A stretch of DNA of 64,000 bases from Rickettsiella endosymbiont of Miltochrista miniata (GTDB lineage Bacteria; Pseudomonadota; Gammaproteobacteria; Diplorickettsiales; Diplorickettsiaceae): the NCBI RefSeq assembly GCF_964031245.1, contig NZ_OZ035017.1:215402-279401 (forward strand). The letters run 5' to 3'. Both the position numbers and the translations under genes were made by a program. Of the stretch, positions 2,017 through 2,521 are shown in pieces (the stretch's first letter is position 1; each line of letters starts with the position of its first letter). The notes beneath the pieces are model-generated. The model ran no database searches, had not been told where the DNA came from, and saw only the letters and a list, made by a program, of their open reading frames with translations.

Positions 2017-2289
2017 AATTGACTCCTTTTATTGTAGTTGTTCCCTATTATTTTCGTAGCTTTTTTAGTCTAATCTATATTATTTAAATTGACTAGATCC
2101 AAAATTATATATTTTGTATATATTTATTTTATTTTATTAATTTGTTTGTAAAATTTTAAAAAAAATCTATGTACCAGAATTGTACCAGGCTGAGATTTAG
2201 CAGGTATAAAACACCGTAGTTTTCAATAGGTTATTAAGTTTGCAAAGTATCGCAAGTGTTTGATTATTAATGTTTATTTTCGTTAAATA

Positions 2290-2332
2290 ACGGATTACGA
2301 ATCAGTTGCTCTACCGACTGAGCTACGTTGGC
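2290..2332 (-). pseudogene. Truncated tRNA-Thr(CGU) 5' fragment: acceptor 5' strand, D-arm and anticodon arm only; no T-arm or 3' end
   Basis: Minus strand reads GCCAACG-TA-GCTC-AGTCGGTA-GAGC-A-ACTGA-TTCGTAA-TCCGT. The D-arm TAGCTCAGTCGGTAGAGC and loop TTCGTAA (anticodon CGT) match canonical tRNA-Thr up to position ~43. Downstream sequence is AT-rich with no GGTTCGA-type T-arm. Confidence 0.5.
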
Positions 2333-2521
2333 AATGCGGTTGAAAGAGCCACGAATTGTAGTCAATTTGAGCATTATTAGCAATTTCATCTTTAAGCTAT
2401 TCATGCTGCGTGTACCAATTTTGTACCAACTACACATTGTCGCTGAATATGGCATTGAGAAAATTTATAAAAAAATTAGCAGATTTTTTCCACAGATAAA
2501 GCGGCGTTTAAACAAATTTAT

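Follow-up and report, generated by a model that had tools for sequence, protein, structure and literature searches.

What does half of a tRNA gene mark when it lies between two genes for effector-like proteins in the chromosome of an arthropod endosymbiont? The question is raised by a stretch of 64,000 nucleotides (nt) from the Rickettsiella endosymbiont of Miltochrista miniata (contig NZ_OZ035017.1, positions 215,402 to 279,401 of the forward strand; hereafter the window, numbered from its first letter), in which a truncated tRNA-Thr(CGU) gene occupies positions 2290-2332 of the minus strand. An initial annotation had regarded this fragment as the likely remnant of a former integration site beside effector-like cargo. 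As set out below, the integration junction in a tRNA gene and the mobile nature of the cargo stand, whereas the island itself has apparently not been deleted. In our reading, to which we assign a probability of roughly 75%, the fragment is a left attachment junction of the attL type, formed by a family of phage-like, tyrosine-integrase elements of Rickettsiella and Aquirickettsiella that use the anticodon stem-loop of tRNA-Thr(CGU) in reversed orientation.

A half tRNA gene with a recurrent junction

The fragment GCCAACGTAGCTCAGTCGGTAGAGCAACTGATTCGTAATCCGT (2290-2332, minus strand) comprises the acceptor 5' strand, the complete D arm and the anticodon arm with the anticodon CGT, and its last part is the 3' strand of the anticodon stem, so that it corresponds to positions 1-43 of the tRNA. 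The window has one copy of this 43-mer, and shuffled sequences gave none. As the initial annotation had expected of a tRNA finder, ARAGORN called no tRNA gene in the whole 64-kb window. Rfam gave no match on the fragment at the gathering score, and at a permissive threshold its tRNA model reached 20.6 bits against a cut-off of 29, with a true alignment to the 5' part only. The 3' half of tRNA-Thr(CGU) found no match anywhere in the 64 kb with up to 3 mismatches allowed. In line with these data, the proposed truncation at about position 43 was borne out. A split, intron-containing or permuted tRNA is ruled out on the same grounds, as the completing 3' half was not found within the 64 kb and ARAGORN recovered none either. 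The idea that a complete tRNA might appear once the start of the window is extended does not apply here, as 2.3 kb of the window precede the break.

We then scanned for the first 40 nt of the fragment, using one genome per species, and obtained 25 loci. In 15 of these, all from Rickettsiella or Aquirickettsiella, the tRNA-Thr(CGU) gene is intact and identical to the fragment at all 40 positions (40/40), while over its whole length the fragment matches at 42 of 43 nt; at position 41 it has C, not A, which breaks one pair of the anticodon stem. A fragment like that of the window was found at two loci, L010 and L024 (L numbers denote the loci compared), both in metagenome-assembled genomes (MAGs). 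In the window and at both of these loci, the tRNA ends after position 43 and continues as TATTTAAC…ATTAATAATCAAACACTTGCGATACTTTGCAAACTTAATAACCTA…TGGTACAATTCTGGTACA.

The sequence that here takes the place of the tRNA 3' half (2170-2289, minus strand) is 120 nt long, non-repetitive and conserved, with 31% guanine plus cytosine (GC), and is 97% identical to its counterpart in L010 and 89% identical to that in L024. We interpret it as a P'-type arm of the element. A metagenome scan with this arm returned 4 further loci. In L029 and L030 it directly follows positions 1-42/43 of tRNA-Thr(CGU), in L031 it directly follows positions 1-43 of tRNA-Thr(UGU), and in L032 it adjoins a reversed 3' fragment of tRNA-Lys. 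The arm is also present in L043-L045, beside other tRNA genes; relics of it were looked for in L001, and none were seen. The same junction nucleotide with the same arm is thus shared by the independent loci L010, L024, L029 and L030 at tRNA-Thr(CGU) and by L031 at tRNA-Thr(UGU). Because one break nucleotide is joined to one adjoining sequence in so many genomes, the break reflects site-specific recombination and not random decay.

A partner site and the geometry of integration

Both MAGs that bear the fragment also hold, on another contig (L012 and L025), an intact tRNA-Thr(CGU) gene together with a tyrosine integrase of 333 amino acids (Pfam Phage_integrase, 3.5e-31; PHROG 1, 1.9e-67), whose gene is co-oriented with the tRNA gene and ends 66-68 nt before it. 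Where a matching 3' tRNA fragment (attR) had been anticipated, the partner site in relatives is therefore an intact tRNA gene preceded by an integrase. The sequence common to the fragment locus and the integrase-tRNA locus consists of the first 43 nt of the tRNA and, in the lineage of the window, another ~57 nt upstream that include the promoter. In the window, this tRNA leader and promoter block lies at 2333-2400 (minus strand) and belongs to the kind that accompanies the integrase, the block being identical in L012 between the integrase and the intact tRNA. A promoter scan identified within it a sigma-70-type promoter, TTGCTA-17-TACAAT, with the -35 hexamer TTGCTA at 2383-2378 and the -10 hexamer TACAAT at 2360-2355 of the minus strand. 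Similar promoter blocks stand before tRNA-Thr(UGU) in L031 and before tRNA-Met in L033, and the fragment in L030 has its own, different native promoter, identity there starting only ~7 nt upstream of the gene. Since promoter and 5' half stand next to the integrase in relatives, it follows that the element carries both, and that the resident 5' half is the one displaced. We also considered the inverted repeat 2077-2095 / 2359-2377, which was judged to be a short chance or promoter-like match.

The initial annotation had proposed a comparison of synteny with relatives. In relatives, the tRNA-Thr(CGU) gene stands head to head with a conserved flank, pilin-ileS-lspA, and it does so with an intact tRNA at element-free loci: L013, L014, L015, L016 and L022 have no element on the 5' side of the tRNA beside pilin-ileS and represent unoccupied sites. 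The flank matches the window over 4631-6000 at 77-95% identity, and its first gene, the pilin gene that abuts the tRNA in relatives, is at 4698-5147 (plus strand). In L010, L024 and L030, the fragment is found at the pilin-ileS flank with the arm on its 3' side. Because the chromosomal flank is on the 5' side in relatives, the pilin side of the window is the chromosome. One of the unoccupied sites, L016, is labelled as the Wolbachia endosymbiont of Folsomia candida and shares 95% identity with the Rickettsiella window over pilin-ileS; on this sequence similarity it is probably a mis-binned Rickettsiella contig. It stops 9 nt past the tRNA-Thr gene, which resembles an assembly break at a repeat.

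These arrangements suggest a mechanism in which the attachment site of the element (attP) would consist, in order, of the integrase 3' end, ~70 nt, the promoter, tRNA positions 1-43, the 120-nt arm and the cargo. Upon integration, the element-borne promoter and 5' half would be joined to the resident 3' half, yielding an intact gene beside the integrase at the far end, and at the near end the resident promoter and 5' half would be fused to the arm, giving the product seen in the window. The 'typical scar' of a tRNA-integrating island invoked by the initial annotation does not describe this arrangement, as the typical remnant is a 3' fragment, and here the 5' part is displaced with its promoter while no 3' half is present in the window. 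We infer that the anticodon stem-loop is the crossover region, with the exchange itself falling within the anticodon loop, because relatives of the integrase with 73-77% identity occur in classical orientation at tRNA-Met and tRNA-His, and because the arm adjoins tRNA-Lys 3' fragments that begin at the anticodon loop. The element may still be mobile today.

The arm ends in TGGTACAATTCTGGTACA (2170-2187, minus strand), a tandem heptamer with its copies 11 bp apart. Motif counts revealed two exact copies of this TGGTACA-N4-TGGTACA pattern in the window, one here and one at 2411-2428 of the same strand, where 0.22 matches would be expected with up to 2 mismatches. Across 0.5 Mb of related loci, the pattern is almost confined to the arm end and to the last codons or 3' ends of integrase genes. 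Given this distribution, the repeats are candidate arm-type integrase-binding sites, and in the proposed attP the two copies would lie ~120 nt either side of the anticodon loop. Tandem direct repeats of other sequence, TGTGTCGAA-TA-TGTGTCGAA in L011-L013 and TAGTGCTA-TGA-TAGTGCTA in L015, were observed 30-60 nt past the tRNA 3' end and could serve further element families as arm sites.

The second copy in the window is contained, as TGGTACAAAATTGGTACA, in a stretch (2401-2436, minus strand) that encodes the last 11 codons and the stop of a former integrase gene (…CVVGTKLVHAA*), as recognised by comparison with L012/L025 and by tblastn, which aligned residues 322-333 of the L012 integrase with window 2439-2404. 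Co-oriented integrase remnants also lie upstream of intact tRNA-Thr(CGU) genes in L008, L019 and L021, an arrangement that, judged from its sequence, would be the state expected just prior to the integration event of the window. In L029, integrase, promoter, fragment and arm follow one another as in the window, and the integrase there is split by an IS630 transposase. The simplest account of the remnant and of the promoter block upstream of the fragment is that an earlier element of the same kind rebuilt the tRNA gene and then decayed, after which a second element entered the rebuilt gene. Such a two-step history would produce the observed succession of integrase remnant, promoter, fragment and arm; what survives of the first element would be the 36-nt remnant of its integrase and, perhaps, the ankyrin gene. 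That elements accumulate in tandem at a tRNA site is well known (PMC7192596).

Co-oriented remnants of integrase C termini were seen in addition at other tRNA genes, in L002 (13580-13882) before tRNA-Arg(ACG) and in L033 (11042-11260) before tRNA-Met(CAT), the latter together with the same promoter block, and the reversed geometry is therefore used at several tRNA genes. Furthermore, a second integrase of the classical kind, on the opposite strand, ends shortly 3' of the intact tRNA-Thr(CGU) in L014, L017, L018, L019, L021, L022 and L023. It is backed by tblastn in L017, L021 and L023, with ~30% identity to the reversed type, and was read from the DNA in the others. With integrases on both flanks, tRNA-Thr(CGU) is an integration hot spot on both sides, and L021 has relics of both.

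Cargo, residence and alternative readings

To the left of the arm, on the same strand, lies the AT-rich leader or promoter region of the first cargo gene (2017-2169, minus strand), delimited by GC statistics and by a homologous stretch in relatives. Its positions 2040-2169 have 15% GC and hold the most AT-rich 120-nt stretch of the window. The AT-rich, low-complexity tract that had been drawn from 2040 to 2260 is thus real for this part, but 2170-2289 is the conserved arm described above and is not of low complexity. Homologues of the AT-rich region (…TATAATTTTGGATCTAGTCAAT…AACAACTACAATAAAAGGAG…) are present in L029/L030 and in L042-L044.

The first cargo gene (1-2016, minus strand) encodes residues 1-672 of an effector-like coiled-coil protein of 680 amino acids (WP_342220277; 100% protein match), which has no Pfam match and no significant sequence match in the PDB. 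It was previously thought to be an orphan, a description that does not hold: it has 33 homologues in Rickettsiella and Aquirickettsiella and a conserved downstream partner gene, itself with 71 homologues, and neither protein contains a known domain. In L029, the arm and the AT-rich stretch are followed by a 41%-identical homologue of the coiled-coil gene. In L043/L044, the same arm, AT tract and a coiled-coil homologue (65% identity) lie beside a tRNA-Lys fragment and are followed by a 496-residue partner, a 302-residue gene, small open reading frames (ORFs), a RecE-like exonuclease (DUF3799) and a 263-residue gene. The same exonuclease module follows the arm in L024, and in L042 a tRNA-Thr(UGU) fragment adjoins this cargo, but with a different arm. 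As arm, AT tract and coiled-coil gene move as a unit, they make up the left end of an element that is phage-like. The phage-type genes seen in the homologous elements (L024, L042-L044) are the RecE-like exonuclease, a PHROG 3657 protein and small ORFs; genes for capsid and portal were encountered only in L033, a related element.

Several further observations concern these genes. The last ~50-80 residues of the coiled-coil protein and of the partner are alike, at 47-91% identity (window 1-150, minus strand; L001 11825-12070 / 13461-13612), suggesting from sequence a common C-terminal module, possibly a secretion signal or a coiled coil. In L002, the orphan/partner pair lies between tRNA-Ser(GCU) and the integrase remnant mentioned above; a tRNA-Arg 5' fragment was looked for at the far end of this island, and none was found. 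L033, an Aquirickettsiella-type metagenome contig, contains at 1-9614 a podovirus-like prophage (nozzle, capsid and head-tail connector) with an ankyrin-repeat gene amid its structural genes and a 73% identical integrase at tRNA-Met.

Is the element still resident in this chromosome? Ten proteins of the window carry RefSeq accessions of the 1.65-Mb chromosome, and their numbers run in window order, from WP_342220277 for the coiled-coil protein through ..278 for the ankyrin protein, ..279 for the pilin and ..282 for a permease to ..284 to ..288. The partner gene predicted directly left of the coiled-coil gene exists as WP_342220276, outside the window. The same chromosome encodes an intact 333-residue integrase, WP_342220238, whose number is 39 below that of the coiled-coil protein; it is identical to the L012 integrase at 332 of 333 residues (99.7%), compared with 90.5-98.7% for core proteins of the same two genomes. 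Based on the accession order, the partner gene and the intact integrase, the element appears to be still present left of the window, and we consider it fairly probable that ~40 genes run leftwards from 2289 to WP_342220238 and an intact tRNA-Thr(CGU).

Some observations weigh against a resident and functional element. Both the integrase's position and the intact tRNA were deduced from accession numbering and from relatives; neither was seen directly, and no single contig carries both ends of one element, the two ends being on separate contigs in the two MAGs. The stem-breaking A41C change is shared with L010, and the junction is thus not brand new. The arm was not found in the viral contigs scanned, and no excised circle turned up. 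Finally, downstream of the coiled-coil homologue of the L044 element, the 10 kb that were read showed no integrase; this element may be a relic, in which case the copy in the window could be partly decayed too.

These points lend some weight to the interpretation first given to the locus, namely that it is the scar of an island since deleted or rearranged, with half a tRNA and some cargo left and no functional element. The lack of an integrase in that stretch of L044, the substitution in the fragment and the indirect knowledge of the left side of this genome would all fit, as would the integrase directly upstream of the fragment, which is cut to 36 nt with the ankyrin gene in place of the rest. 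Nevertheless, we regard such a scar as unlikely, because arm and first two cargo genes have remained intact in the conserved order, the arm being 89-97% identical to L024 and L010, and because the same chromosome holds an intact integrase that is closer to its L012 counterpart than the core proteins are.

A different role for the locus, compatible with an integration junction, would be that promoter, half tRNA and arm have been kept as a regulatory module, supplying the cargo genes with promoter and leader. The consensus-like promoter aims through fragment and arm at a co-oriented cargo gene 270 nt downstream; the promoter scan placed no terminator-like site between the two on that strand; and the arm is ~85% identical between the window and L029 (by eye, alignment A1), although the cargo protein is only 41% identical there. 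However, conservation of the arm is equally expected from integrase arm sites, and promoter-like sites in the AT tract lie closer to the cargo gene. The folding of an RNA made of leader, fragment and arm is not unusual (z = -0.8), and on this value a structured RNA formed by fragment and arm was rejected. Retention as a leader thus seems very unlikely as an explanation of the locus. Ordinary pseudogenisation, with the 3' half lost by random deletion or insertion, would account for its absence from the window and for the anticodon-stem substitution, but has a negligible chance of being correct, since the same break with the same 120 nt recurs in at least 5 other loci of different genomes and metagenomes, one of them on tRNA-Thr(UGU), and an intact integrase-linked tRNA copy exists in the same MAGs.

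The chromosomal side, known systems and significance

Beyond the integrase remnant lies the gene of an ankyrin-repeat protein, WP_342220278 (2522-4480, minus strand), identified by Pfam ANK matches and placed outside the element by a synteny break, with a papain-like cysteine protease domain predicted at its N terminus from a fold model. Together with its flanks (window 2437-4631), this gene stands for ~95 nt present in L016/L010; older junction relics were searched for between it and the pilin gene (window 4481-4697), and none were detected. The two genes flanking the fragment had both been viewed as cargo. For the present element this applies to the coiled-coil gene but not to the ankyrin gene, which is on the chromosomal side, next to the 36-nt integrase remnant; that either gene encodes an effector is conjecture.

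The N-terminal domain of the ankyrin protein (255 residues) has 407 homologues, mostly with ankyrin repeats behind it, and matches no Pfam family. Across 22 homologues, Cys14 and His161 do not vary. In an AlphaFold model with a predicted local distance difference test (pLDDT) score of 89, the nearest folds were AvrPphB (1ukf, C58), viral-tegument-like deubiquitinases (8adc) and lymphostatin, at weak E-values of 0.003-0.03 and template modelling (TM) scores of 0.4-0.5. A search of PDB sequences with this domain alone gave no significant match, and the best profile hit had E = 0.02. The protease-like domain noted in the initial annotation is therefore plausible, and by the same model the domain is a candidate for a new papain-like protease or deubiquitinase family of intracellular bacteria.

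Two other parts of the window are low in GC. Four tandem ORFs of 158-165 amino acids, with no Pfam match and very AT-rich spacers, lie at 61270-63772 in a region of 30-34% GC; positions 61270-61481, at 15% GC, are the sole other stretch as AT-rich as 2040-2169. Where GC is lowest in the window (27-31% over 29-32 kb), an ORF of 747 amino acids without a Pfam match (28962-31205) adjoins a GH129-like glycoside hydrolase gene (26964-28880); this segment may also have been acquired horizontally.

Classical tyrosine-integrase elements of the lambda, P4 or P22 type carry the 3' part of their target tRNA, leave a 3' fragment and need no promoter. Lambdoid phages of enterobacteria use the anticodon loop of thrW, a tRNA-Thr(CGU) gene. 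The Rickettsiella element as proposed resembles such integrators in having a tyrosine integrase beside attP, in an attP that holds part of the target tRNA so that the gene is restored, and in a predicted direct tRNA repeat at both ends. It differs in bringing the 5' part together with a promoter, and in an integrase that is co-oriented with the rebuilt gene and upstream of it.

For integration into tRNA genes with reversed orientation of the target, where it is the 5' portion that the element brings, a published account speaks of a 'considerably less frequent' event compared with 3' integration (PMC6563490). In common with the integrators of that kind, the Rickettsiella element carries the tRNA 5' portion, the displaced piece is a 5' fragment and the rebuilt gene needs element-borne upstream sequence. 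As far as the papers citing the known cases allow a comparison, it differs from them in host clade (here Legionellales endosymbionts), in integrase lineage and in cargo. Zhao and Williams (2002, J Bacteriol 184:859) reportedly described the reversed target gene orientation of an integrative element and a tRNA gene, and the same account (PMC6563490) cites archaeal cases as well.

Within this family of elements from Rickettsiella and Aquirickettsiella, the same arm and integrases of 73-77% identity also occur in classical orientation, at tRNA-Met, tRNA-His and tRNA-Lys. The classical members of the clade are L033 (tRNA-Met, podovirus-like), L036 (tRNA-His), L039 (tRNA-Met), and L043/L044 and L032, in which the arm lies beside a tRNA-Lys 3' fragment. 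They share with the element of the window the related integrases, the C-terminal repeat coding for …AGTKLVH, the arm with TGGTACA-N4-TGGTACA and, in L043/L044, the cargo too. In contrast, their tRNA faces the integrase, to which its 3' end is adjacent, and what is displaced is a 3' fragment starting at the anticodon loop. This raises the tentative idea, which at present we would rate as rather unlikely, that one integration module, made up of the integrase clade and the arm with its TGGTACA-N4-TGGTACA repeat, fits either way round on the two-fold symmetric anticodon stem-loop of different tRNAs. The reversed versions would carry a portable tRNA promoter, and the displaced promoter would read into the effector-like cargo pair, wiring cargo expression to a strong housekeeping promoter.

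Eukaryote-directed prophage genes of intracellular symbionts are known from the 'eukaryotic association module' of phage WO (PMC5062602). The Rickettsiella locus offers an analogy only: here too, effector-like genes border a phage-like element of an arthropod endosymbiont, with no sequence relationship to that module.

If the proposed reading is correct, the half tRNA would be an exact boundary marker, with mobile phage-like DNA left of 2289 and the coiled-coil gene as its first cargo, which would be of use for the annotation of Rickettsiella genomes, where few prophages have been reported. The locus would add a well-documented bacterial case, with several independent junctions, of a rare reversed geometry of tRNA integration, and island finders keyed to 3' tRNA fragments alone would miss such elements. 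An integrase family with both geometries would provide a natural system in which to ask how changes of orientation and of target tRNA come about in an integrase and its attachment site.

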